Shown one piece after another: positions 5,019 to 49,335 of a stretch of 64,000 nt of DNA. A program made the translations under genes and the position numbers. The DNA is taken from assembly GCF_003790525.1 (NCBI RefSeq), contig NZ_CP033635.1. One strand, 5' to 3'. The first letter of the stretch is position 1. Every line of letters begins with the position of its first letter. A model generated the notes under the pieces. The model was not told where the DNA came from and did no database searches. It saw nothing but the letters and a program-made list of their open reading frames with translations. This DNA comes from Escherichia coli. GTDB lineage: Bacteria > Pseudomonadota > Gammaproteobacteria > Enterobacterales > Enterobacteriaceae.

Positions 5019-5924
5019 ATGAGAAAGATAAAAATAGGGCTGGCGCTGGGATCTGGCGCGGCGAGAGGTTGGTCGCATATTGGCGTTATTAATGCGCTAA
5101 AAAAAGTGGGTATTGAAATTGATATCGTTGCAGGATGCTCAATTGGTTCGCTGGTGGGCGCGGCCTATGCATGCGATCGATTATCTGCGCTGGAAGATTG
5201 GGTAACCTCTTTCAGTTATTGGGATGTTTTACGCCTGATGGATCTCTCCTGGCAGCGCGGTGGGTTACTGCGCGGCGAGCGTGTCTTCAATCAATATCGC
5301 GAAATAATGCCGGAAACAGAGATCGAAAATTGTTCCCGTCGCTTCGCGGCTGTTGCCACCAATTTAAGTACTGGGCGCGAATTATGGTTTACTGAAGGCG
5401 ATCTCCATCTTGCTATTCGTGCATCATGCAGTATTCCAGGACTAATGGCACCCGTTGCGCATAACGGCTACTGGCTGGTTGATGGCGCTGTAGTTAACCC
5501 AATTCCTATTTCGCTCACGCGTGCATTGGGTGCTGATATTGTGATAGCGGTCGACCTGCAGCACGATGCTCATTTGATGCAACAAGATCTGCTCTCCTTT
5601 AATGTCAGTGAAGAAAATAGCGAGAATGGTGATTCTCTGCCGTGGCATGCGCGTCTGAAAGAAAGGTTGGGCAGCATAACGACACGTCGGGCGGTGACAG
5701 CGCCAACGGCAACAGAGATTATGACCACTTCTATCCAGGTGCTGGAGAACCGCCTTAAAAGGAACCGCATGGCAGGTGATCCGCCCGATATTCTGATTCA
5801 ACCTGTTTGCCCGCAAATATCTACGCTTGATTTCCATCGCGCGCACGCTGCCATTGCGGCTGGGCAGCTGGCAGTGGAAAAGAAAATGGACGAACTTTTG
5901 CCGTTGGTACGCACCAACATTTGA
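5019..5924 (+). CDS. rssA: patatin-like phospholipase
   Basis: GxGxxRG and GCSIGS patatin motifs; start chosen at MRKIKIG (301 aa), longer ORF begins at 4980. Confidence 0.85.
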   Translation: MRKIKIGLALGSGAARGWSHIGVINALKKVGIEIDIVAGCSIGSLVGAAYACDRLSALEDWVTSFSYWDVLRLMDLSWQRGGLLRGERVFNQYREIMPETEIENCSRRFAAVATNLSTGRELWFTEGDLHLAIRASCSIPGLMAPVAHNGYWLVDGAVVNPIPISLTRALGADIVIAVDLQHDAHLMQQDLLSFNVSEENSENGDSLPWHARLKERLGSITTRRAVTAPTATEIMTTSIQVLENRLKRNRMAGDPPDILIQPVCPQISTLDFHRAHAAIAAGQLAVEKKMDELLPLVRTNI

Positions 5925-25916: not shown

Positions 25917-26144
25917 CTACATATCAGTCTCTTCAAACATTTCCTGAACAGTACGGCTTATCTGTTCATTCTCATGCTTGTTGGCGTCAGTGTTGATCGC
26001 CGGCAATGTCATCATCGGTTTAACCCGGACATCAGCGCCGGGGAAAATCCGGTGAACCCTCTTGGTCAACTCGCCCAGAATGATATCTTTTGCACCGGGC
26101 AGTCCATCAAAATTCCTTTTGCCATAAACGAGTTCCACGAACAT
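25917..26144 (-). CDS. DinI-family (damage-inducible protein I / MsgA-like) protein
   Basis: 75 aa, MFVELVYGKRNFDGLPGAKDIILGELTKRVHRIFPGADVRVKP... matches DinI family pattern. Confidence 0.65.
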   Translation of the reverse strand: MFVELVYGKRNFDGLPGAKDIILGELTKRVHRIFPGADVRVKPMMTLPAINTDANKHENEQISRTVQEMFEETDM

Positions 26145-26219
26145 TGCTCATTGCCTCTTTACTGGGTGTATATACAGTATTTATACTGTGTTTTTATCCG
26201 GTATTCAAGAGAGGGCGTA

Positions 26220-26573
26220 ATGATGCCACGACGCAGCGATATTGAAATAGCCTGGTATTCTTCGATACAGCAAGAGCCGAATGGCCGGAAGACCGTCACT
26301 ACACAGCGATTTGTTCAGGGGTTGAGCAAAGTTAACTGGGAATTCTCACTCAAAGATGCTAATGCCTGGATCGAATCCAGCGTGAGCACTTTTAAATATT
26401 TATCAATGGTAGAGGGGGAAGAACGCACTTTCATGCTCTATAGCCTTGATTTATGCGATGCACATTTCCACAACCTAGTCAGGACAACCTCTTTTCTAAT
26501 AAAATGTAGATGCCTAATTTTAGGCGTCTACATAATTAATGATGATTTATTACAATTATTTTCTAGATACTAA
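26220..26573 (+). CDS. hypothetical protein
   Basis: ATG at 26220 with gagaggg RBS upstream; earlier part of the listed ORF is antisense to the DinI-like gene; 3' end runs into AT-rich DNA. Confidence 0.3.
   Translation: MMPRRSDIEIAWYSSIQQEPNGRKTVTTQRFVQGLSKVNWEFSLKDANAWIESSVSTFKYLSMVEGEERTFMLYSLDLCDAHFHNLVRTTSFLIKCRCLILGVYIINDDLLQLFSRY
26504..26533 (-). terminator. hairpin terminator downstream of the sulfatase-like gene
   Basis: 12-bp inverted repeat atgtagatgcct-aatttt-aggcgtctacat, T-rich flank on minus strand. Confidence 0.5.
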
Positions 26574-28363
26574 TCGTGAAATAATGACATTGAATAAATC
26601 CACGACGGGGTCATGTTAATTAACTTATCATAATTAAAGTTATCACTGTTTTCACAGACATGCTTTGCGTTGTGATTAAATGATACCAATCCAGATTGAA
26701 TGAAATGTTTATCAACTAATGAAGATACACAGAAAAAAGGTTTTCCATTGGCGTCGGTTATGAATTTTTTAATGGCGTCTTTATCATTTGATTTAATAAG
26801 TACAGGAACATCACCAAAATCGAGTGGGGTTGTGCTCATTTTAAAGACGAAATCTTCATCTTTTTCTTCTCCGATTTTGTTGAAAATATTACTTGGTAGC
26901 ACCCCATTTTCGACGAAATATTTATTTAGTGGTGGTTTATGGTCACCGTAAAAGACGATTACAGCATTTGGATCTATTTTTTCTACTTGCTGTGAAAATT
27001 GAACGAATCTTTTGACTGCCTCATTAATCTCATAGGTATAAACACCTTCACCATAATCATTAATGTGTTGATAAGGACCATGAGTTGACATAGTGATCAA
27101 ATGTACAAAAATATCTTTGTTTCCTGCATTTTGGATGGCTTTTAATGCTGCATTGTAAAGCAGGTAGTCATCAGGTTGCCACTGCCATGGTTTTTTAATA
27201 CTGCTATACTCTGGTGGTAAATCTCCCATATTAATAATGCTATCAAATCTATCAAATCCAAATTTAGGGTAAATTTTATTCCTATACCAAAAGTCTGCTT
27301 GGTAATTATGTGCTGCGAAAGTAATATAGCCTTTGTTTTTCAGGGCATTAGGTAATGCGTCAACTTTTGGTTTGAATGCATCTGAATATTCTTGATAGAT
27401 GATTCCTGATATTTTATCTGAATTACTTGGTAGTCCTGTCAGCATTTCAAATTCGGCATTTGCGGTACCTCCACCGTAAACTGGTGAGATGGCCCGTAAT
27501 TCACTGTAACCTTCATCAATAACAGGTTTGAAATTTTCTCGGAAGTTTTTTTTATCATACCAACATGATTCACATAAAACATAAATAATGGTTTTATTTT
27601 TTATATGAGTGGATACTAAAGATCTTTTTTCATCTAAATATCTTAATTGTTCTGCATCAGTTGCATGTGGTACAGATTTTCTGACACTTGTTTGTATTAT
27701 ATGCATTGGCAAGCCATTAACGCCAATATTTTGAGACCAATTCCAGTAAATATATTTTATATTTAAGTTGTTCGCGCTGGAGTTTATGATTTCAGAAATC
27801 CTATTGTTAGGGCTAAAAATGGTTCCAATATAGGGGTAGAATGAAAAGGGGATCGTAATGATAATTAAAAGAAATAACGATATATAATTTTTTCTTGTTG
27901 TGACCGTTTTTTTGCTAAGTAGGATTGAGATTATTGCGCCAATTAGAATAGCGACAGAGTAAGTAATGGATGATAAGTTGAGGTATTTTCCTGCGACACT
28001 CAAATTGAATCCAGAAACAATGTCATTAAATGATAAAGGCTCACCGGTTAACGCCATTTTAGTACTGTTCACAAACATCAATGTTATAATTGCGATGCCT
28101 GATAAATAAGAACATAGAAAAATTGGAATGTTTATTATTCTAAATAACAAATAAATAAACAAAATGGGGGATGAACGCCAGATGAAATTCAATATTGCAC
28201 CAATTAACTCTTTAGGCGGTTCAATATTTCCTATGATAACTATTGACTGATTTAGAAAACAAAATAAGTACAATAAAAACATAACGTTGACAATGTCGAA
28301 AACATATGATTTCAACTTTAAGTTTTTATATCTTGTAACGACTTTGCTCAAACCGATACTCAT
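26570..28363 (-). CDS. sulfatase/LTA-synthase-like membrane protein (alkaline phosphatase superfamily; possible phosphoglycerol or phosphoethanolamine transferase)
   Basis: 597 aa; N-terminal multi-TM region, C-terminal domain with metal-site-like motifs HLITMSTHGPYQ and VIVFYGDHKPP; visibly AT-rich compared with flanks. Confidence 0.7.
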   Translation of the reverse strand: MSIGLSKVVTRYKNLKLKSYVFDIVNVMFLLYLFCFLNQSIVIIGNIEPPKELIGAILNFIWRSSPILFIYLLFRIINIPIFLCSYLSGIAIITLMFVNSTKMALTGEPLSFNDIVSGFNLSVAGKYLNLSSITYSVAILIGAIISILLSKKTVTTRKNYISLFLLIIITIPFSFYPYIGTIFSPNNRISEIINSSANNLNIKYIYWNWSQNIGVNGLPMHIIQTSVRKSVPHATDAEQLRYLDEKRSLVSTHIKNKTIIYVLCESCWYDKKNFRENFKPVIDEGYSELRAISPVYGGGTANAEFEMLTGLPSNSDKISGIIYQEYSDAFKPKVDALPNALKNKGYITFAAHNYQADFWYRNKIYPKFGFDRFDSIINMGDLPPEYSSIKKPWQWQPDDYLLYNAALKAIQNAGNKDIFVHLITMSTHGPYQHINDYGEGVYTYEINEAVKRFVQFSQQVEKIDPNAVIVFYGDHKPPLNKYFVENGVLPSNIFNKIGEEKDEDFVFKMSTTPLDFGDVPVLIKSNDKDAIKKFITDANGKPFFCVSSLVDKHFIQSGLVSFNHNAKHVCENSDNFNYDKLINMTPSWIYSMSLFHD

Positions 28364-28471
28364 ATTAATGCTCTATCTCTAGAATAATGAACTTTTATGC
28401 AGAATATCACAAAATGACATTTTGGTTAAATAAATCATGGTAGTCTCTCTTACTAATCATGAGTTTAAAAT

Positions 28472-28729
28472 CTAATTAGTAGAGTATCTAATCTGTCTTT
28501 GGTATGTGTAAAAATCCAGGTTTATCCCACCATCCGGGGCGTATCCCCAGAAAACTGGATCAAGATGGAGTTTCTCGTCACGTTCGCTCAGAAGCAGAAC
28601 TTTGGTGCCTGGCGCAACGTTGAAACGTCCGATCGGTTCAGGGTCATATGGAATGTCTTGCTCGACTTCATCTGCGAGAAGGGCGAGATAGTCTTCACGC
28701 GTCATTGACTGTGAAAAGCGTCCGCACAT
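28472..28729 (-). pseudogene. SOS-response-associated peptidase (SRAP/YedK-like), truncated
   Basis: begins MCGRF (Cys2 nucleophile hallmark) but is only 85 aa, far shorter than an intact family member; C-terminus diverges next to the AT-rich insert. Confidence 0.55.
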
Positions 28730-33002: not shown

Positions 33003-33029
33003 AACTGGTTATCAAATAACCAGTTTTTT
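33003..33029 (+). terminator. ompW terminator hairpin overlapping the prophage integrase stop codon (probable attL core region)
   Basis: perfect palindrome aactggttat-caa-ataaccagtt followed by TTTTTT; int stop codon lies at 33012-33014 inside the hairpin. Confidence 0.55.
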
Positions 33030-34142
33030 CCACTCTTTACCGCGTGCGTCGTTGTAAATATCGGTCATTTTTTGATTCGAATGGCCCAGCAAAATTTTGG
33101 TATCAATTCCCTGTTCTCTGAACAATCGTTCTGATAAAGATCTTTGCTCATGGAAAGAGGGTGGCGTGCCATTAGCACGCCAGTTGTAATCCACAGAATC
33201 CCGGGCTTTTTTAAATGCGACTGTTAATGTTGCTGGTTTAACCATCCCGCCGCGCTTACCCATCCCCTTAGCGTGATGATGGTGCAATAACCACGGACTA
33301 AGGATGTAATCACGACAGGATGACACCACGTCACCCAGGGTAAGATTTAATTTGTCGCAACGCAGAGCCAGAGGAATGGCTATCCGGGCTCCTGTTTTTT
33401 GCTGTTCGACATGAAGGTAACCATCCCGGATATCCGAAAACTGCATTTTGCAAATATCCGAAAGACGCTGGCCCGTCATCAGTGCCAGCAGCATGCCGCG
33501 CTGTAAAAAGTAACCATCCTTTTCCGCTGCGTTATAAATCATCATCCACTCATCAAAAGTCAGTCGCTGTCTTGATATCCGCACTTGCGGTTTTTTTGCC
33601 GATTCAGCCGGGTTAAAGCCTGGCGGAACATCACCAGTTTGTTGAGCCTCCCGGAAAACATCGATCAATACCTTCCTGAAAATTTGTCCCATTCTGTTAT
33701 GTCCCTTTGCCTTGTATTCTTCCAGCACCGATACCACATCTTTTACGGTTATGGCATCTAGCGGCCTGGCTCCAAAACGTTCATCAAACACCCTGAGAGG
33801 AGCCGCTTTTTGCTTCAGCGTGCTGAGTTTGATCTCTCCGTTCTCATATCTTTCCTGTTGAATTTTTCTGTAATTATTCAGAAAAATGGAAACGGTTGAT
33901 GCGCCGCCGGTATCACTAATAATTTTCTCCTGCAGACTGAGCATTTGCTCCATTTGTTGTCTGGCAAGACGGCTGTTCGCTTCTGCTGAAATGGTTTCCG
34001 CCAGTTTCTGGTCAATACTGCCGAGTCCATGATTTTTACCTGTGATGGGATTCCTGTAACGCCAGTAAACTTTGTTATTTCTTTTGTCAAAATACGGAGA
34101 TAAACCCGGAACATCGGTTTTATATTTTCTCGGGCGCGCCAT
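33012..34142 (-). CDS. int: prophage tyrosine integrase
   Basis: 376 aa, lambda-Int-like catalytic C-terminus (...HEQRSLSERLFREQGIDTKILLGHSNQKMTDIYNDARG) with catalytic Tyr in DIYND. Confidence 0.9.
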   Translation of the reverse strand: MARPRKYKTDVPGLSPYFDKRNNKVYWRYRNPITGKNHGLGSIDQKLAETISAEANSRLARQQMEQMLSLQEKIISDTGGASTVSIFLNNYRKIQQERYENGEIKLSTLKQKAAPLRVFDERFGARPLDAITVKDVVSVLEEYKAKGHNRMGQIFRKVLIDVFREAQQTGDVPPGFNPAESAKKPQVRISRQRLTFDEWMMIYNAAEKDGYFLQRGMLLALMTGQRLSDICKMQFSDIRDGYLHVEQQKTGARIAIPLALRCDKLNLTLGDVVSSCRDYILSPWLLHHHHAKGMGKRGGMVKPATLTVAFKKARDSVDYNWRANGTPPSFHEQRSLSERLFREQGIDTKILLGHSNQKMTDIYNDARGKEWKKLVI

Positions 34143-34368
34143 CTTCCAGTATCCTCTTCAAAGCAGGGTGATCTGTGGCGATCACCTCCGGCTTGTTTAC
34201 CATTCCGACAAAGCGAGCGCGTGGATCCACTCGCCAGTGCCTTCCTACTTTTTTGGGGAGAGGAAATATCATTCCGGCTTTAGCGTATTTACTTAACGTA
34301 CCCGGAGTAGGGACTGGTTCACTGAATTCCTCTTTTGCCCACTCAGTGAGCAGAATAAGTCTTGCCAT
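34120..34368 (-). CDS. xis: excisionase
   Basis: 82 aa ORF overlapping int start; winged-helix motif GMIFPLPKKVGRHWRVDPRARF similar to lambdoid Xis. Confidence 0.65.
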   Translation of the reverse strand: MARLILLTEWAKEEFSEPVPTPGTLSKYAKAGMIFPLPKKVGRHWRVDPRARFVGMVNKPEVIATDHPALKRILEDGAPEKI

Positions 34369-34432: not shown

Positions 34433-36886
34433 TTAAAAATCAGCCTGATTCGGGATCAGTTTTTGTATAGTGGCTGTTACGTATTTTGCCTGGTGAAGAG
34501 CGTCATCCAGAGCATTATGGCGCACGCCTTCGAATGGAATTACGCTTCTGGCATTGAAGTCTGTGATTTTCCCCATCTCAACGATTGTGCGTACATCACG
34601 ATCGTTGCTGTAATGCCACGGACAGGGGATGTCCAGACGTTCGTATGAGGTGCGCAAAATTGCGTTATCGAACGTTGCGCCATTACCCCACACCTGAACG
34701 AATTTTTCATCAGAGTGTTCATTGACGAATTCCCGAAAACGCAAAAGGGCATCTTTCATTTTTACCTGGTCAGTTAAAATGGCAGCTCTGGCTTCGCTGG
34801 ACTGCTTCAGCCACCATTCGATGGTGCCACCATCAGGAACAGCCCCTGTATTCATTGCGTCAGTCAGGCTGATAACGATATAAAATACCGGCCCGATTTC
34901 CCCTGTTTCCGGGTCGAAGAAAACCGCACCAATAACTACTATGGGTGCATTGGTGTTGGCTCCCATTGTTTCAAGGTCGACTGACAGGTGATTCCATACT
35001 CTGCTGGTGGATGTGATTTCACGATGACCGTTCATCTTAATTAAGGAATTTTCTGTTTCGCCAGTTTTATTATCGCTGGCGTGGCCCTGAGCGCCGCCAG
35101 TGTTCTCCTTGTGCGGATGCTCAGTGCCTTCCGTTTCCTCCGGATTTTTTTCCTGAGATTCAGCCTGATTTTCTCCATTGAATGTTTCCTGGTATGTTGC
35201 GTCACCCATTACTGAGCCACAATCAGGGCAGTTGCCGCCGCTGGTCTGACCGCAGGCGGTGCAGACTTTTTCCGGTTCCTGTTGCGCTACTGGCTCAGGT
35301 TGTTTCGTTTCTGGCTCGTTTTGTAACGCATTTTGGCTGTTTTGTTCCGCTTTCTGGTCGTTCTGTTCCGTTTCTTGCTGGTTCTGGTTCACTGAATCGC
35401 GAGTCTGGACTCCCTTAACCCATTTCAGATCATTCGGGTCGCTAATCCCTTCAACGAACTCACCACGCGAGGCCGCCAGTAATTTGTCTGCATCGACAGG
35501 ATTTTTGGGCGGAATGTTTTTCCTAGCTTCATGGAGTTCTGCCCGCAGTTTCTGATATTTCGCATCAACAGAATTCACCTGCGGCTGAGCATCCAGCGGC
35601 TGCGTGTCCGGATGATGTTCAGTTGTATCCGGTTCCACTGTTTCAGTCGTTGGCTGTTCATCTGCCATTGCGCCAGACGGTTGCGGTTTTTCTTCATCAT
35701 CCTGTTTTCCTTCTTCTGTTACACGCTGCGGCATTGGGGCAGAGGAACGACCGCAGGCAATATCCACGATTTCCGGATCAGGGTTGGCATGATCGGTTTC
35801 GGTCAGCACTTTATTCAGGTATTCGGTGACGCGCTGGGGCATAGCCTCTATACCAACCGGTGCTTCTTTCACGGAGGCAACCACGATGGCGCGGGAATAA
35901 TCCATCCCGCCTGGCATGTTCAGAAAAGCCTTAAGGAAGACGGAGAAACAGGGATCATTTTCTGCGATAATTTCGTTAACACGTCTGGTATGTGAAGGAT
36001 GCATGTTGTAAATATCCACATCCATCGAACGAGCCAGTTTTCCTGTAGCAACATCGAATGCCATTGACGCATTATCATGCACAAAACCTTCGCCGCGATC
36101 GGTAAGGATACCGCCGCCAGCGTTAGCGCCGGATGGTGTGCGACTGATGCGAGAAACACGATTTCCTTTCATCCACTCTTTTGTAAGCAGACCACGATCA
36201 GTGTAGTCAGCGTCCAGGTATGCTTCGATGAAGGAGGTCATCAGTCCCAGGTCTGAATTTACGGGGGCGGGAAAAACTTTGTCAGTGTCCCGCACCAGTT
36301 TGTACAAATCCCGAATCTCCAGCGGTTCGAGTTGCGCTGCTTTATTTGAGATGGCCAGCGCGGTAACGGCGGGAAGTTTTTCTTCCTGTGCGTTATGTAA
36401 TGAGCGCAGTTCATCCCGCGAAACGTGCGTTACTGGTTTTTCGCCGCCGTGTTGCGCCAGCCAGCGAACAGGCAGAATCTGACCTGAAACCGGCAGAAGC
36501 ATATTCTCCTCAATCTCAGTCATGTCTTCGCCATTAACATTGGTGTTGTCAGTGCTGGCTGGTTTGTCCTGCGCGGATGGCGGGGGCGCGATAAATATCA
36601 TTGTGATGCCATCTTCGCCGCCTTTTTCATACCGGTTACAGAATTCGGTATCAAACACGCCTTCCGGTGGAAGGTCATCAACAACGGGCAAATGGACGCG
36701 AACAGGTTTTTTAAAGTCGTCTTCATCATAATCGTTATCATCCATTGCGGTAATACAGCGGGAGATGGCAACAGATAATTTTTTTGCTGTAGTCCAGTAA
36801 AAACCACCTTTAATCCCAAGGCGTTTTCTGACTTTGTCATTTTTAGCTTCGCAATATAGCGCAAAAGTTTCTTTATCAGTGCTCAT
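34433..36886 (-). CDS. phage exonuclease family protein with C-terminal DEDDh (DnaQ-like) 3'-5' exonuclease domain
   Basis: 817 aa; C-terminus [23 protein letters not shown]...[13 protein letters not shown]...HNALDDA; central zinc-ribbon [16 protein letters not shown]. Confidence 0.75.
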
Positions 36887-37005: not shown

Positions 37006-37227
37006 TCACCATGCCTCCGCCTTTACAGGTAAACCATCACGACCGAGGAAGACTTTAATCATGCGGTCAGTAATGCATGTTTTTGTAGTGAAATCACGGA
37101 TATAAAGTTTTTGCTTTTCGATATTGTTTGCCGATGCAACATATGTCCGGCCTTCGTAAATAACGTAATCGCCGGGAGTGACGCACTGGCGTGGTATTTC
37201 ATCGGTTCCGAAGTGATGAGCAATCAT
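37006..37227 (-). CDS. hypothetical phage protein
   Basis: 73 aa ORF with strong RBS aaggag 7 nt upstream of ATG. Confidence 0.55.
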
Positions 37228-37272: not shown

Positions 37273-37818
37273 CTATTTAATACTCAGCAACTGCTCGACG
37301 GTCATATTTTTAATTGCGCCCCGGTTTATGAGAGTCCATCCCTGCTTTTCCAGATAAAAACGGAAAGTATCCAGAGTACAGACCAGTGCGCCATCAGGAA
37401 CGGTTTCGGTGAATTTGATGTAGCCGTGTTCGTCGAAGCGGATAACCAGGGTGTGGTCATCACCCGGGATTATTTTGTCAGCGGGTGTGGTGTTATTCCG
37501 GCGCAGTTCTTCCTCCATGCGGTCGAACTCGGCAATGTAGGCTTCCTTGAATGCAGCGGCTTTTTTGCCGGTGAAGCCCATCACCAGGAAAACGAAGCCG
37601 TTTTTGGTGATTTGGTAGGCATTGTAGGTATTGCCACGGTGCTCGAATTTAACCCGCGAAAAGTTGCTGGTTAAAAAGCGTTCAGAACATTCGAGGGCTT
37701 CTATTTTTTGAACAACATGGTGATGCTGCTTGCCGAAGAATTCTGCGATCGCAATAGACGTAGTGACAGCGCGACCATTTTCAATGGTTACGTCAGGGTG
37801 AGAAAGGGTAGTAGCCAT
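37273..37818 (-). CDS. Rha-family phage regulatory protein (antirepressor-like)
   Basis: start placed at MATTLSHPD (RBS gagga); N-terminal Rha motif GRAVTTSIAIAEFFGKQHHHVVQKIE; frame stays open upstream to 38115. Confidence 0.7.
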   Translation of the reverse strand: MATTLSHPDVTIENGRAVTTSIAIAEFFGKQHHHVVQKIEALECSERFLTSNFSRVKFEHRGNTYNAYQITKNGFVFLVMGFTGKKAAAFKEAYIAEFDRMEEELRRNNTTPADKIIPGDDHTLVIRFDEHGYIKFTETVPDGALVCTLDTFRFYLEKQGWTLINRGAIKNMTVEQLLSIK

Positions 37819-38298
37819 GATGGCATCCTCAAGTGTTAAGTTAATTAACTCACCACCGAGGCTTTCCACGACCATAAGGGTGGCGAGACGTACAGGGGTG
37901 GAAATACCGGTCACTCGAGAACCCGGCCAGCCTTGCAGCTGCCCTGCACGCCCCACCATTATCTGAATGTGGCTGTGCTTAACGCATAAAAAAACCGCTT
38001 CGGCGCGGTTATGCGCTCGAGTAACTTTCGGGTTTCCACGCCCGGCACCCGTTTTATGAGGTGCAGGTGCACTATAATTCCACCCGTACTGGTTTTCAAT
38101 AGCTACATTCAACATTTTCTCTTACCTTTCATCACCGAAGTGAACTTTGTTGATGCGGTGCCAGGTGCCTCCAGGTGACGTTAACCAGTTAACAATTAAC
38201 GCCGGATACAGAGAATCCACCCATAACACTGTTTTTGGTTTTAACTGTTCCGCGTGCGCTGAGCCGCATTCACCACATCACAAAATTCACTTTAAAAA

Positions 38299-38349: not shown

Positions 38350-38540
38350 ATTGATAACAGAGGGCGTTGCAGCGGGGTTGTCACTCAGGCGCATGGTCAA
38401 CCTGACAACCCGGTGTCCTCAAGGGGAAGGGAACCCCGCCATGCTTACCGCCGCGCGCTTTCGTGTTGTGTGCCTGCTTTTAACCACGTCAGGCGAGGTG
38501 GTATCCTCTGAGGGGTCTGTTACCCGAGAGGAAATTGGTT

Positions 38541-38741
38541 ATGAATACAATCAAGTTTTCTTGCCCAGAATGTGGTGGCGAAGTCTTCGACACATCCTTT
38601 AAGCCGCAGGGCTCTGACAGTTTCGCGGGAGCCATCTGCAAAAATTGTGGTCACCTTGTAACTGAAGATGAGTCCTCGCAATTCGATGAGGAAATCGTTG
38701 ACAATATCTTCGGTGTAATCACCGGAGCCTTTCTGAAGTAA
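38541..38741 (+). CDS. small zinc-ribbon protein
   Basis: 66 aa with two CxxC pairs (CPECGG ... CKNCGH) and acidic tail; RBS gagagg; an overlapping minus-strand ORF (38520..38876) is a competing call. Confidence 0.4.
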   Translation: MNTIKFSCPECGGEVFDTSFKPQGSDSFAGAICKNCGHLVTEDESSQFDEEIVDNIFGVITGAFLK

Positions 38742-39060
38742 AGGCACATACCGCTTAGTTACCGCTCTGATAATTCTTACCTGTCCGGCAATGGCGCTGA
38801 TGTCAATATAAAGCGCCATTGCTGCTTCTTTGCCGATCCCGGGATGCCTTCCATTCTGATGTTTGACTTCGCCCACTGAGAAATCCTCTGTTTCCCCTTA
38901 ACGCCGGGGTAGCGGAACAAAAACCTGCTGCATAGTTAAAGTTAAACCCTGCCGTCATGTTCATACGCCTCGGGCTGGCTACTTAACCCCTGACCACTGC
39001 CTGGTAACTCGAAGTATTGCCCTGCGTTCTGTGGGGCGGGGTGGGTTGGTATGAAAGAAA

Positions 39061-39144: not shown

Positions 39145-39564
39145 TTATGATGCGTTTTGTGCTTTCTTTTTACGGATTTCTTCGTAGATCATATTGTAAT
39201 ACTGTTTTTTCTCTTCAAGAGTTTTTAATAAGTTATCCGCTTCACTTTCAGGCAGTTCGTCTAAGAGATCTAAAAAAATACGTTGTCGTGGCGTTAGAAC
39301 CCTTGTTTCATAATTGGAGGCTGTGTTCGTTGATGATGAAACGATACCATCCATCCATCCCCGGGGTAACCCAAAGGACTCTTCTATAATCTCCACCATA
39401 TCATCAGCGATCCGTTTTTTTCCTTTTTTCCCCTCTGGGTACAACATTCTTGATACATAAGAAGGCTCGCGACCGATCTTTCTGGCCACGTTAACCGCTT
39501 TACCATCGCATTTCTCATCACGAATTTTGATGAGTTGTTGTCGTCTAAATTCATATTTGTCCAT
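39145..39564 (-). CDS. prophage repressor (HTH, RacR/DicA-like position)
   Basis: start at MDKYEFRRQQL (listed ORF starts further upstream at a TTG inside the operator region); divergent from the cro-like gene. Confidence 0.7.
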   Translation of the reverse strand: MDKYEFRRQQLIKIRDEKCDGKAVNVARKIGREPSYVSRMLYPEGKKGKKRIADDMVEIIEESFGLPRGWMDGIVSSSTNTASNYETRVLTPRQRIFLDLLDELPESEADNLLKTLEEKKQYYNMIYEEIRKKKAQNAS

Positions 39565-39583
39565 AGGTAAATAATAGATGCGA

Positions 39584-39638
39584 TTACCGCAAGGTAAACA
39601 ACCCAAGGGTATTGACTTTTGTTTACCTGTGGGTATTC
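39584..39638. promoter_or_regulatory. divergent promoter/operator region between repressor and cro-like gene
   Basis: three related palindromic sites TTACCgcaaGGTAA, ACCCaaGGGT, TACCtgtgGGTA sharing half-sites with the sites at 39061-39100. Confidence 0.55.
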
Positions 39639-44829: not shown

Positions 44830-45033
44830 CCTGGCCTGAAGCATTCACAACGGCAGGAATTGCAATGGCGGAGGCGCTGGTGATGTATTCTATTTGCGGT
44901 TGGGGATAAATCGTTGAAAAAAGCTCCCGACACAAACATGAGTCGGGAGCTTTGATTTATATGGCTTACGAATCCGCCAGCAAGAGAGCGGGCGGACATT
45001 TTATTCTAACACCGGAATTCTGTGGGGACAAGT

Positions 45034-45333
45034 TTATAAGAAATCGGTTTCATAACTTTGTCCGCCATGATAAACACCTGCGATAAAGACTTTATTGTCA
45101 TCAACGGCAAAAGCAATAATCGTTCTGTGGCGGAAATGAGTTACCCGCATCCCCTGGCGAATATCATCGCGTTTATTGCCCCGATGCGGAAATGCAGAAA
45201 ACCCATCAAGATAATCAAGAAGCGCATTGGCATAATTGTCAGCAATGACGCCTCCTGCTTTCTCCGTTATATATCTGTGCAGGTTTATTATCTGCTGTTC
45301 GGCCTCGGGGGTAATGATGACTTCAAATGTCAT
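45034..45333 (-). CDS. parE: type II toxin, RelE/ParE family
   Basis: 99 aa ParE-like pattern; 5 bp downstream of antitoxin gene. Confidence 0.7.
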   Translation of the reverse strand: MTFEVIITPEAEQQIINLHRYITEKAGGVIADNYANALLDYLDGFSAFPHRGNKRDDIRQGMRVTHFRHRTIIAFAVDDNKVFIAGVYHGGQSYETDFL

Positions 45334-45338
45334 GCAGA

Positions 45339-45596
45339 CTACTTCCCGGATCTAATCGCGGCGCGAACCTGTGAAATGGAGCGTCCGTTGTTTGGGTTTT
45401 CGCGGATAGAATCAAGAGAGGGGGCGACTGAATGCGTTAACCACGCTTCGATTGCTTTATCGCGCTCATTCAGTGCGCGAAGCCCTTCACGAATGACCTC
45501 GCTTTCTGAAGCATAGGCACCGGAAGCCACACGGGAGCGCACCATGTCAGCCATCTCGTTAGTTAATGTAATACTGAATTGTTGGGTTGTACGCAT
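45339..45596 (-). CDS. parD: type II antitoxin, ParD/ribbon-helix-helix family
   Basis: start at MRTTQQFSITL (RBS gtgagg); RHH motif SESEVIREGLRALNERDKAIEAWL. Confidence 0.7.
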   Translation of the reverse strand: MRTTQQFSITLTNEMADMVRSRVASGAYASESEVIREGLRALNERDKAIEAWLTHSVAPSLDSIRENPNNGRSISQVRAAIRSGK

Positions 45597-47064: not shown

Positions 47065-47430
47065 ATGACTGAACACATAGAATTTGTTTTGCCTTACCCG
47101 CCAACGGTGAATACTTACTGGCGACGTCGTGGCAGCACATATTTTGTATCAAAAGTCGGTGAACGTTATCGCCGGGATGTGGCGTTAATTGTTCGCCAAC
47201 AGCGGTTGAAATTAAACCTGTCCGGAAGGCTGGCAATAAAAATTATTGCAGAGCCACCGGATAAGCGCCGCCGCGACCTGGACAATATCCTGAAGGCACC
47301 ACTGGATGCACTGACGCATGCCGGACTATTCATAGACGACGAGCAGTTTGATGAAATTAATATTGTGCGCGGTCAGCCCGTTCCTGGTGGGCGGCTGGGG
47401 ATAAAAATCACAGAACTGGAGTGCGCATGA
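47065..47430 (+). CDS. rusA: Holliday junction resolvase RusA
   Basis: 121 aa with conserved RRDLDNILKAPLDAL motif. Confidence 0.85.
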   Translation: MTEHIEFVLPYPPTVNTYWRRRGSTYFVSKVGERYRRDVALIVRQQRLKLNLSGRLAIKIIAEPPDKRRRDLDNILKAPLDALTHAGLFIDDEQFDEINIVRGQPVPGGRLGIKITELECA

Positions 47431-49059: not shown

Positions 49060-49181
49060 TATTGCCTGAGTAATTTTCTGTTGACCGCTCAAATTCTTTT
49101 ACCATGTGTAGGCCAATATGCAGGATTTAATCAGGGAAGGGTATTGCAGAGCAAAACTGGCATAAGTATTATTCCGCATAC

Positions 49182-49257
49182 GTCCCTTTAGCTCAGTGGT
49201 GAGAGCGAGCGACTCATAATCGCCAGGTCGCTGGTTCAAATCCAGCAAGGGCCACCA
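49182..49257 (+). tRNA. tRNA with CAU anticodon (Ile2/Met-type, ileZ-like)
   Basis: cloverleaf folds by eye: D stem GCTC/GAGC, anticodon loop CTCATAA, T loop TTCAAAT, CCA encoded; one mismatch at pair 2-71. Confidence 0.8.
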
Positions 49258-49258
49258 A

Positions 49259-49335
49259 CCGCCACTAGCTCATCAGGAGAGAGCATCAGCCTTCTAAGCT
49301 GACTGTGCGGGGTTCGAGTCCCCGGTGGCGGTCCA
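49259..49335 (+). tRNA. tRNA-Arg (UCU)
   Basis: cloverleaf folds by eye: D stem GCTC/GAGC, anticodon stem TCAGC/GCTGA, loop CTTCTAA, T stem CGGGG/CCCCG, CCA encoded. Confidence 0.85.

Follow-up and report, generated by a model that had tools for sequence, protein, structure and literature searches.

A prophage exonuclease gene of Escherichia coli joins a RecE-type N-terminal region to a DEDDh exonuclease domain

The window analysed here, a stretch of 64,000 nucleotides from the E. coli contig NZ_CP033635.1 (assembly GCF_003790525.1), carries a prophage whose exonuclease gene is, with near certainty, a three-part mosaic. It combines the N-terminal region of RecE and an acidic linker with a DEDDh exonuclease domain, while the PD-(D/E)XK nuclease of RecE is missing. 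Because two-thirds of the protein is RecE, we regard this chimera as a derivative of RecE whose catalytic domain has been exchanged rather than as an unrelated exonuclease. The gene is already annotated and common among prophages, and on present evidence it is not a new kind of system. A preliminary description of this locus, made from the sequence alone, had recognized the open reading frame, the DEDDh domain, the neighboring genes and the lack of an annealase, all of which hold, whereas its orphan N-terminus and its zinc ribbon had to be corrected.

Modular Organization of the Exonuclease Gene

The gene spans positions 34433..36886 on the minus strand and starts with ATG; the list of open reading frames contains the 817-amino-acid frame exactly as previously described. 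A 100% nucleotide match was found for this interval, the PGAP annotation agrees with it, and the product is 100% identical to RefSeq WP_097733765.1, annotated as "exonuclease". AlphaFold predicts two confidently folded parts, aa 1-388 and aa 628-812, and between them a disordered, acidic linker some 240 aa long. The first fold, hereafter the N-module (35723..36886, minus strand), is an acidic alpha/beta plus helical structure common to RecE, with a pI of 5.0. The linker (aa 389-627; 35006..35722, minus strand) is mostly disordered and rich in Q, E and P, and the second fold (aa 628-812; 34451..35005, minus strand) is a predicted 3'-5' exonuclease domain of the Rv2179c/DexA type, identified by Pfam, AlphaFold2 (AF2) and Foldseek.

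The RecE-Derived Region

BLASTP aligned aa 58-616 (35039..36715, minus strand) with residues 50-591 of K-12 RecE at 70% identity over 559 aa, up to the start of the RecE nuclease. The Pfam family PF06630 (Exonuc_VIII) also matched the N-terminal region (E=1e-26), identifying it as the N-terminal region and linker of RecE. The NCBIfam exoVIII model NF007259 was matched over positions 1-602 of 877, and the score of 1027.9 bits lies below the cutoff of 1269 that marks an equivalog. RecE (exodeoxyribonuclease VIII of the Rac prophage of K-12) resembles the chimera also through the acidic linker and a four-cysteine motif, and it occupies the same operon slot, between kil and xis-int. Its catalytic PD-(D/E)XK domain (PF12684/DUF3799, PDB 3H4R, residues ~564-866), however, is absent from the chimera, which carries the DEDDh domain instead. 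Homology ends at RecE residue 591 in BLASTP, Pfam detected PF12684 in K-12 RecE and not in the chimera, a sequence search of the PDB with the chimera gave no match to 3H4R, and the RecE nuclease domain, searched against the window by tblastn, reached a best E of only 0.94. The two genes also differ downstream, where recE is followed by recT and the chimera by xis, with no RecT in the window.

These results change the standing of the N-terminal region, which had been called long and uncharacterized. It is not an orphan, although the second half of that statement survives, since the corresponding part of RecE is itself described as of unknown function (PMC11611040). The preliminary description had also set a match to a well-characterized RecE family member against its own reading; such a match exists by half, as RecE covers two-thirds of the protein and the nuclease domain differs. 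The first 57 aa (36716..36886, minus strand) are unlike K-12 RecE and recur in a 682-aa protein of Stx phage 75/02. In this segment dS is 0.22, and it rises to about 1.0 in the next, a jump that indicates a mosaic junction.

The N-module has no structural relative in the PDB or BFVD. Being acidic, it more probably binds proteins or serves as a tether than it binds DNA. It occurs in several other arrangements: fused to the RecE nuclease and then followed by RecT, fused straight to a RecT domain (in P0121), and alone, directly upstream of gam-recT-exo in phage 75/02. Full-length RecE boosts linear-linear recombination, whereas its nuclease domain alone does not (PMC11611040).

The linker has a pI of 4.5. 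AF2 assigns pLDDT values under 50 to aa 389-439, 491-541 and 554-627, and short helices are predicted at aa 440-456 and 466-473. Its part from aa 465 to 616 is common to RecE and to the mEp460 and 75/02 proteins described below. Within it, a regular-expression search located the motif CxxC-x7-CxxC, 15 residues formed around C542, C545, C553 and C556 (aa 542-556; 35219..35263, minus strand), which is also present in K-12 RecE. The "central zinc ribbon" of the preliminary description corresponds to these four cysteines, which do exist, but no Pfam zinc-ribbon family matched them, and they lie inside the linker, which AlphaFold predicts with pLDDT below 50. Among distant representatives, two of the 13 DEDDh-type proteins and one of the 19 RecE-type proteins keep the motif; with 3 of 32 in total and such low pLDDT, a zinc ribbon was rejected as a feature of the family.

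The DEDDh Exonuclease Domain

Pfam PF16473 (Rv2179c-like) matched aa 632-805 with E=2.7e-66; the score of 223.1 bits exceeds the gathering score of 27, and the match spans profile positions 1-175 of 177. Alignment with T4 DexA and homologues places D637, E639, D740, H790 and D795 opposite DexA D7, E9, D119, H186 and D191, the catalytic residues listed in PMC12153337, and this D-E-D-H-D pentad is invariant in the alignment. On the minus strand, the codons lie at 34976-34978 (D637), 34970-34972 (E639), 34667-34669 (D740), 34517-34519 (H790) and 34502-34504 (D795). The domain is modeled with an AF2 pLDDT of about 90; its top Foldseek matches are the DexA structures 8KEL and 8KEN (E=1.3e-9 for 8KEL, TM about 0.64-0.74), followed by RNase T and Orn/REXO2. 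A sequence search of the PDB likewise ranks DexA first (E=6e-8), and the place of DexA as the closest structure rests on single-sequence and fold searches, a profile search of the PDB being circular with DexA in the alignment. The family match, the catalytic residues and the DexA fold bear out the earlier assignment of a C-terminal DEDDh domain, and from its resemblance to T4 DexA the nuclease is predicted to work 3'-5', opposite to the 5'-3' polarity of RecE. The namesake of PF16473 is called an exoribonuclease, whereas DexA is a DNase.

The domain was found in 4104 of 5426 complete E. coli genomes (76%), in up to 8 copies, and the median genome has 2 places that match the exonuclease gene as such. 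Compared with E. coli homologues, dN/dS is 0.06-0.29 on the folded modules, so both are under purifying selection. These ratios, together with the persistence of the fusion in homologues whose N-module identity falls to ~30%, argue that the gene is functional rather than decaying.

Operon Context and Expression

The exonuclease gene is the last before xis-int in a leftward early gene string that runs from the repressor through rha, kil and exo to xis and int, all on the minus strand. At its head lies a repressor-like transcriptional regulator (39145..39606; phrog_5736, E=7e-70, with the layout taken from PGAP), which faces Cro-like and CII/YdaT-like genes on the opposite strand. A Rha/Ash family regulator (37273..38115; PF09669 and PF10554) follows further along the string, and directly upstream of the exonuclease gene, in the same operon, is Kil, a KilR-like septation inhibitor (37006..37227; phrog_294, E=6e-34, PGAP "kil"). 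This is the 73-aa frame previously noted as one neighbor; the other, xis, is directly downstream and encodes an excisionase (34120..34368; PF07825, E=3.6e-7, PGAP "excisionase"). A lambda-type integrase (33012..34142; PF09003 and PF00589, PGAP) comes next, and the integration site of the prophage adjoins ompW.

The exonuclease gene is thus co-oriented with and downstream of kil and rha, as it is of dicB-ydfD in homologues, and consensus scans for a promoter or terminator of its own returned matches at chance level. The equivalent operon of the Qin prophage is repressed by DicA and has been likened to lambda PL (PMC10448788). Elsewhere in the prophage, the only recognizable recombination protein is the Holliday-junction resolvase RusA (47065..47430, plus strand; phrog_34, E=1e-55, PGAP). 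The set of structural genes appears complete within the window according to the PGAP layout.

A Nuclease Without an Annealase

Known phage recombination pairs of the SynExo type place a PD-(D/E)XK 5'-3' alkaline exonuclease beside an annealase. Pfam, BLASTP and tblastn revealed no such exonuclease at this locus, and no RecT/Redbeta, Erf, Rad52/Sak or Sak4 protein lies beside the gene, with 12 homologous loci negative as well. The search of the whole prophage that had earlier been proposed for annealases came out empty by each route. PHROGs scans of 27 early-region open reading frames found no annealase family, and none is named by PGAP in a prophage that matches this one at 99.6% identity over most of its length. 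In six-frame tblastn of the whole window, the lowest E was 0.22 among the queries, which were two RecT proteins, the RecT-annotated annealase of a Red-type module, Gam, a lambda-type Exo and the nuclease domain of RecE. The earlier statement that no annealase is adjacent therefore stands for the entire window.

The arrangement is constant, since in all 12 sampled fusion loci, with N-module identity down to ~30%, the fusion gene directly adjoins xis-int, and the fusion architecture persists to that level of identity in other genera and in metagenomes. Among relatives that carry the RecE nuclease, RecT followed in 2 of the 3 loci checked, and the third had a 271-aa protein without a known family in the slot of RecT. 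Classical recombineering by an exonuclease plus an annealase is unlikely for the chimera, because its DEDDh domain is predicted to act 3'-5' rather than 5'-3' as a PD-(D/E)XK enzyme would and because no annealase accompanies it. Of the interpretation offered in the preliminary description, the lack of an annealase partner is upheld; the protein nevertheless proves to be a RecE derivative, and the suggested anti-defence role is taken up below.

Relationship to Known Systems

The C-terminal domain shares the DEDDh pentad and the family PF16473 with T4 DexA (exonuclease A, PDB 8KEL/8KEN), although identity is only 23-29%. DexA, in contrast to the chimera, is a stand-alone protein of 227 aa from a virulent phage, with extra loops and neither N-module nor linker. 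Its tryptophan W152, which PMC12153337 ties to 5hmC recognition, corresponds to Ser760 of the chimera within the well-aligned block xxNDRDVRT; the position of D169, the acidic residue linked to the same recognition, does not align with confidence. D90 of DexA corresponds to D712, a match drawn from an alignment of 29% overall identity in which the local block is unambiguous.

EcD, also called "HREX" (PMC12153337), likewise comes from E. coli and belongs to the DEDDh superfamily; the catalytic core of DexA is conserved in the chimera. EcD stands alone and begins at the catalytic motif (MIDTET..., read from the primer), our comparison being based on primer-derived termini and published residues. 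EcD has A78 in place of D90 and so lacks the tetramer-forming aspartate, which the chimera keeps as D712.

Two families of prophage proteins share long segments with the chimera. The 682-aa "exodeoxyribonuclease VIII" of the Shigella Stx phages 75/02 and POCJ13 aligns with it at 60% identity over aa 1-574, a range that takes in the first 57 aa and the four cysteines, yet it has no recognizable nuclease domain, and its gene precedes gam, the gene of a RecT-annotated annealase and a lambda-type exo. The "exonuclease" of about 820 aa found in mEp460, CP-933O/P and O157 prophages, to which the YdfE fragment of K-12 Qin is related, shares instead the linker and the DEDDh domain (70% identity over aa 465-817), the slot before xis-int and the absence of an annealase. 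Its first ~470 aa are only remotely related, with nothing seen by BLASTP, although aa 245-626 are covered by the NCBIfam exoVIII model; dicB-ydfD lies upstream where the chimera gene has rha-kil.

Prophages of Klebsiella, Salmonella and Citrobacter encode stand-alone Rv2179c-like exonucleases of about 190 aa that share 56-62% identity with the C-terminal domain, carry the same catalytic residues and are also encoded by the last gene before xis/int. They differ in lacking N-module and linker, in having Ala, Ser or Thr at the D90-equivalent position, and in belonging to a different type of prophage (YfdP/DUF2303 context).

Proposed Function and Alternative Explanations

A search of the literature found no experiments on the chimera or on any fusion-type homologue. 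The gene encodes a domain-swapped RecE, which keeps the folded N-module (~390 aa) and the long, disordered acidic linker but has a DexA-like DEDDh domain in place of the 5'-3' PD-(D/E)XK nuclease. Our best guess at its biological role, which we consider about evenly balanced between right and wrong, is that of an exonuclease acting on DNA 3' ends, made when the prophage is induced, built on the RecE scaffold and working without a dedicated annealase. Judging from gene order, it would be produced together with Kil after release of prophage repression, whereas the quiescent lysogen would not make it. By analogy with T4 DexA, it would act as a metal-dependent 3'-5' exonuclease on free DNA 3' ends, and the N-module would deliver it to, or hold it at, the substrates or partners that RecE uses. 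The transactions served may be the 3'-end trimming of linear, recombination or replication intermediates of phage DNA with no dedicated annealing protein, relying either on host recombination functions plus the RusA of the prophage or on spontaneous annealing of the 5' overhangs created. DexA itself has an established role in intron homing, a double-strand-break repair process (PMC12153337).

Several observations pull in other directions. A 3'-5' exonuclease strips the 3' tails used by RecA and annealases, and a pro-recombination role is for this reason not obvious. Nor does the N-module, which has no structural relatives, carry an assigned function in RecE itself. Stand-alone DEDDh versions of 190 aa fill the same slot in other prophages without any N-module, so the role of the nuclease may be unrelated to RecE biology. 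Finally, the stand-alone DexA homologue of E. coli has been reported as a defence protein.

That report bears on a possible, though unlikely, role in prophage defence or superinfection exclusion, in which the DEDDh domain would degrade incoming phage DNA, for instance DNA with modified cytosines, and the N-module would be an accessory or a sensor. EcD expressed from a plasmid protects E. coli and digests T4 DNA (PMC12153337), and DEDDh exonucleases with variable auxiliary domains act against RNA phages (TONDOs, PMC13344964). The abundance of the domain in E. coli prophages (the 4104 of 5426 genomes given above) would suit such a role, as would DicB, which is encoded in the same operon of homologous prophages and blocks phages that need ManXYZ for DNA injection (PMC10448788). 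On the other hand, the gene sits in a repressor-controlled early operon with the toxic kil and shows no promoter of its own beyond chance. PADLOC-DB 2.0 returned no family at E<=0.01, in a library dated 2023 that predates HREX and TONDO. The mechanism residues also disagree, with DexA W152 replaced by Ser760 and the aspartate lost in the EcD-type dimer retained as D712. The 120 homologue clusters closest to the DEDDh domain do not include EcD, and the HREX result comes from one study with plasmid expression.

The early-operon position suits a function that benefits the phage, and this would favor the anti-defence role suggested in the preliminary description, which we nonetheless judge improbable. 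In the lytic phase, the nuclease would destroy host immune nucleic acids with free 3' ends, such as retron msDNA, RT-made cDNA or linear signaling oligonucleotides, or would blunt restriction. RecE degrades retron msDNA in vivo and has been discussed as an anti-restriction factor (bioRxiv 10.1101/2020.06.22.160242), and a swap of nuclease polarity on a constant scaffold could answer a changing target. In that same retron study, however, RecE triggers the retron-TA rather than blocking it. No known anti-defence family was matched in our libraries, which are not specific for anti-defence proteins, and recombination is the process suggested by the repeated pairing of the N-module with RecT and Red-type modules. 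The suggestion has no direct support: PADLOC is blank, and the only experimental precedent for a DexA homologue in E. coli is one of defence (PMC12153337), with mechanism residues that are unmatched here.

Nucleotide salvage, the breakdown of DNA fragments to mononucleotides for phage replication, is quite improbable. The scavenging of host DNA is one of the two established DexA roles (PMC12153337). A stand-alone homologue in Salmonella adjoins a protein with a dATP/dGTP pyrophosphohydrolase domain. Against salvage, no lambdoid temperate phage is known to degrade the host chromosome, neither PGAP nor PHROGs made a host-DNA endonuclease evident in the prophage, and the RecE N-module would be left unexplained.

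It is highly improbable that the chimera works in classical RecET-like recombination, with an annealase coming in trans from another prophage, such as Rac, or with one hidden in the same prophage. E. coli genomes usually hold several lambdoid prophages, and the gene itself matches at a median of two places. The present prophage includes products without a known function (DUF1627, Ea22-like, phrog_660 and phrog_1521), and the no-family protein in the RecT slot of one RecE-type locus indicates that unrecognized annealases may exist. Yet exonuclease-annealase pairs are specific and adjacent, the nuclease domain that interacts with RecT is missing from the chimera, the predicted polarity is wrong for making 3' tails, and a neighboring annealase was absent from all 12 sampled fusion loci. 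A non-functional relic, a chance recE x DEDDh recombinant decaying in a cryptic prophage, has next to no probability; dN/dS and the conserved architecture led to its rejection. In its favor, the early regions of lambdoid phages are strongly mosaic, dS differs ~5-fold along the gene, and disrupted copies exist (one split by IS100, with many partial copies according to PGAP), but here the 817-codon frame is intact, the folded modules are constrained, the catalytic pentad is invariant, the same fusion recurs at ~30% identity in other genera and metagenomes, and the structural gene set of the prophage is apparently complete.

Implications for RecE and Prophage Biology

RecE/RecT is a workhorse of recombineering, and all that is known of the N-terminal two-thirds of RecE is that they boost linear-linear recombination. 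In prophages carried by most E. coli genomes, this module also occurs, under purifying selection, together with a nuclease of predicted opposite polarity and no annealase. One scaffold with different effectors amounts to a natural comparative experiment that could reveal the job of the scaffold. In a bolder proposal, which we consider unlikely, the RecE N-module would be an autonomous adaptor of novel fold for interchangeable effectors (a 5'-3' PD-(D/E)XK nuclease, a 3'-5' DEDDh nuclease, RecT or none), and the DEDDh version would be self-sufficient and annealase-independent, resecting the strand opposite to the one attacked by every known exonuclease of phage recombination. If this were true, the DEDDh version would either run a mirror-image pathway of recombination or, in conflicts of phages with hosts or with each other, act as a weapon targeted at nucleic acids, and the binding target of the N-module would explain two-thirds of RecE as well. 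More broadly, the chimera belongs to an abundant, unstudied type of prophage enzyme that, in pathogenic E. coli such as O157 and the Stx-phage lineages, could have a bearing on recombination, on competition among phages or on defence.

Genomic Context of the Fusion Gene

The gene order around the prophage (tonB, yciA, yciB, yciC, ompW, then int) identifies an E. coli host and a lambdoid prophage beside ompW. Within it, the fusion gene is a single ORF of 817 codons with an ATG start in the ORF list (34433..36886, (-)). Family searches identified an 82-aa excisionase (34120..34368) and a 376-aa lambda-type integrase (33012..34142) downstream, and a 280-aa Rha/Ash regulator (37273..38115) upstream. 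The xis and 73-aa neighbors named in the preliminary description agree with these results, the latter being the septation inhibitor Kil (37006..37227; phrog_294). A prophage in strain TUM1886 matches that of the window at 99.6% identity along most of its length, and the TUM1886 protein identical to the 817-aa chimera, WP_097733765.1, is annotated plainly as 'exonuclease'.

TUM1886 encodes this protein twice (L001 20001-22454 and L002 15436-17889), in separate prophages at the ompW and tRNA-Ser/mtfA sites; the upstream kil product is also identical (WP_264831590.1), and the xis/int genes differ. Elsewhere in the window, two candidate ORFs, both with family support, overlap in antisense: a 118-aa ORF matching phrog_21318 at E=2e-61 (38520-38876, (-)) and a 68-aa ECs_2282-type zinc-binding protein called by PGAP (38535-38741, (+)). 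PGAP annotation of the near-identical TUM1886 prophage (L002 coordinates + 18997) places a RelE/ParE-ParD toxin-antitoxin pair at ~45033-45595 and tRNA-Ile and tRNA-Arg genes, downstream of antiterminator Q, at ~49181-49334. The stretch 26001-28729 has ~36% GC and may be a foreign island upstream of yciI-tonB; it includes a 597-aa multi-pass membrane ORF (26570-28363, (-)) and, next to it, an 85-aa ORF starting MCGRFSQ (28472-28729, (-)), which we take to resemble an N-terminal fragment of a SRAP/YedK-type protein.

Modular Architecture of the Chimera

Pfam returned two significant matches on the 817-aa protein. The first, PF16473 (Rv2179c-like 3'-5' exonuclease), covers aa 632-805 (E=2.7e-66), and the sole solved structure recovered by sequence search was a 227-aa 'exodeoxyribonuclease' (8KEL/8KEN, E=6e-8), which is T4 DexA. 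The active site is intact, the DEDDh pentad being invariant in an alignment of the chimera, DexA and six homologues (D637, E639, D740, H790 and D795, equivalent to DexA D7, E9, D119, H186 and D191). The C-terminal DEDDh domain described from the sequence is thereby borne out, and the chimera shows every sequence and fold feature that defines the Rv2179c/DexA DEDDh subfamily.

The second match, PF06630 (Exonuc_VIII; aa 57-189, E=1e-26), falls in the N-terminal region, earlier called uncharacterized, which proved to be RecE sequence: aa 58-616 are 70% identical to K-12 RecE residues 50-591 by BLASTP, and the match ends exactly at the start of the RecE nuclease domain. Pfam detects the PD-(D/E)XK domain PF12684 in RecE and not in the chimera, and the curated NCBIfam exoVIII model matches only over positions 1-602 of 877, with a score under its cutoff. 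The likeness to RecE over aa 58-616 does not amount to RecE/exoVIII membership: the defining catalytic domain is missing, the curated score falls short and there is no RecT neighbor. The chimera is most aptly seen as RecE-derived, with its effector domain exchanged.

Comparison with other relatives divides the protein further. Its first 57 aa, not shared with K-12 RecE, occur in a 682-aa protein of Stx phages 75/02 and POCJ13 that is 60% identical to chimera aa 1-574 but has no nuclease domain at all, whereas the ~820-aa 'exonuclease' of mEp460 and O157-type prophages shares only aa 465-817 (linker and DEDDh domain). Because the RecE, 75/02 and mEp460 proteins each match different parts, the chimera is a three-piece mosaic. 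Relative to an O157 homologue (L007 4001-6463), dS is ~0.22 at aa 1-57 and 391-560 and ~1.0 at aa 58-390 and 632-805; such shifts between ~0.2 and ~1.0 at piece boundaries point to reassembly of the gene by recombination at module borders.

An AlphaFold2 model of aa 1-460, built on a 50-sequence alignment, has a mean pLDDT of 84.8, and its folded part spans aa 1-388. The full-length model comprises this N-module, a mostly disordered linker (aa 389-627) and a confident DEDD fold (aa 628-812); with a pTM of 0.35, no fixed inter-domain arrangement is predicted. All three regions are acidic (pI 5.0, 4.5 and 4.9, respectively), which weakly suggests that the N-module may bind protein rather than DNA. 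The 'central zinc ribbon' of the preliminary description corresponds to a CxxC-x7-CxxC motif at aa 542-556. The four cysteines are present and are kept in K-12 RecE, but they lie in the low-confidence linker, are backed by no Pfam model and recur in just 3 of 32 distant representatives of the family. Conservation within the N-module is highest at window 36061-36145 (aa 248-275), a stretch that includes a glycine-rich loop, RTxSGxNAGGGxxTDR, just preceded by the nearly invariant F219 and W238; this loop, modelled at low confidence at aa 250-258, may be a ligand- or partner-binding site.

Absence of an Annealase Partner

The reported lack of an adjacent annealase holds across the prophage. No RecT, Bet or Erf appears in the PGAP annotation of the near-identical prophage in TUM1886, where the only recombination-type genes are RusA and a DUF968/HNH protein. 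Against PHROGs, 27 ORFs of the early region gave matches to regulators, replication proteins of the O/P type, RusA and several unknowns, but to no annealase family. Six-frame tblastn of the whole 64-kb window, using two RecT proteins, a RecT-annotated annealase from a Red-type module, Gam, a lambda-type Exo and the RecE nuclease domain, gave a best E of 0.22. A gene without an adjoining annealase is the general pattern: xis and int directly follow the fusion gene in 12 other loci. Among them are E. coli loci at four further integration sites, two phages (vB_EcoS-689R5 and mEp460), and relatives from metagenomes or other genera whose N-modules are only ~30-38% identical.

Relatives of other architectures differ. 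RecT comes next in two of the three RecE-nuclease loci checked, and downstream of the nuclease-less 75/02 protein lie gam, an annealase annotated as RecT, and exo. In the third RecE-nuclease locus (L018 6565-7380), RecT's slot is filled by a 271-aa protein, a candidate unrecognized annealase, with no Pfam match and a single PHROG of unknown function (phrog_3657). A 703-aa representative, P0121, has the N-module and linker fused straight to a RecT domain (PF03837, aa 528-678) and no nuclease domain; it could be a natural recE-recT deletion fusion.

Distribution and Selection

Exhaustive HMMER searching with aa 1-460 recovered only 187 cluster representatives among 1.8 billion proteins, and the N-module is therefore a narrow family. 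Among the 83 representatives that reach 450 aa, local phmmer gave 13 a DEDDh domain, 19 a RecE-type nuclease and 51 neither; when 39 of these 51 were scanned with Pfam, two RecT fusions and a single weak PD-(D/E)XK match were all that emerged. The DEDDh domain, by contrast, is very common: counted where a copy covers at least 80% of it, it is found in 4104 of 5426 complete E. coli genomes (median two copies per genome, maximum eight), and 1017 complete genomes have a match over at least 80% of the whole fusion gene. Measured pairwise against four homologues from E. coli, the gene has a dN/dS of 0.06-0.29 in its folded modules and the first part of the linker and of 0.54-0.60 in the second; the low values on the folded modules indicate that the gene is maintained, not decaying. 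The family is already in RefSeq, Pfam and PHROGs (phrog_607, phrog_2082, phrog_20376), and literature searches found neither an experimental nor a descriptive paper on the RecE-N/DEDDh fusion.

Stand-alone ~190-aa homologues from Klebsiella, Salmonella and Citrobacter prophages are 56-62% identical to the chimera's DEDDh domain and are also the final gene before xis/int. Those at L021 3703-5570, L023 and L024 5001-5573 lie in prophages with YfdP/DUF2303 genes, and the Salmonella homologue has immediately upstream a 432-aa protein with a dATP/dGTP pyrophosphohydrolase domain (PF04447), a possible sign of a connection with nucleotide metabolism. At the distant loci with a DEDDh fusion (L012, L015 and L016), a conserved 112-116-aa protein (at L012, for example, 5522-5860) takes the place of kil or ydfD immediately upstream; it has a precomputed PF02082 (Rrf2) match and belongs to a PHROG family without known function.

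Proposed Role and Alternative Explanations

By homology to DexA, the chimera would be a metal-dependent 3'-5' exonuclease acting on DNA 3' ends, with DNA as a predicted substrate only, the Pfam namesake (Rv2179c-like) being called an exoribonuclease. The reading that we favor, with moderate confidence, is a RecE-scaffolded enzyme that trims 3' ends without an annealase of its own; 3'-5' resection would leave 5' overhangs able to anneal directly. The enzyme would be made on prophage derepression, since its gene follows rha and kil in the same orientation (in homologues, dicB-ydfD) and showed no promoter signal of its own; the equivalent Qin operon is DicA-repressed and has been likened to lambda PL (PMC10448788). 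A role in phage DNA transactions would be expected because recombination genes accompany the N-module in every other architecture, because linear-linear recombination is boosted specifically by full-length RecE (PMC11611040), and because DexA, among its established roles, serves intron homing, a double-strand-break repair process (PMC12153337).

Anti-phage defense is an unlikely function, although EcD ('HREX'), a stand-alone E. coli DexA homologue, reportedly degrades T4 DNA and protects cells (PMC12153337), and DEDDh enzymes that carry auxiliary domains protect against RNA phages (PMC13344964). EcD is absent from the retrieved close homologues of the chimera's DEDDh domain, DexA W152 aligns with Ser760, the D90 equivalent is kept (D712), the gene occupies an early-operon position, and a PADLOC search gave no match. 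The earlier suggestion of anti-defense fits early expression timing and the degradation of retron msDNA by RecE (bioRxiv 10.1101/2020.06.22.160242), but gained no direct support here and seems quite improbable. An annealase supplied in trans, nucleotide salvage and a non-functional relic, the last at odds with the apparent constraint on the gene, are less likely. As a RecE derivative carrying a different nuclease, the chimera offers a useful way into the unexplained N-terminal module of RecE.
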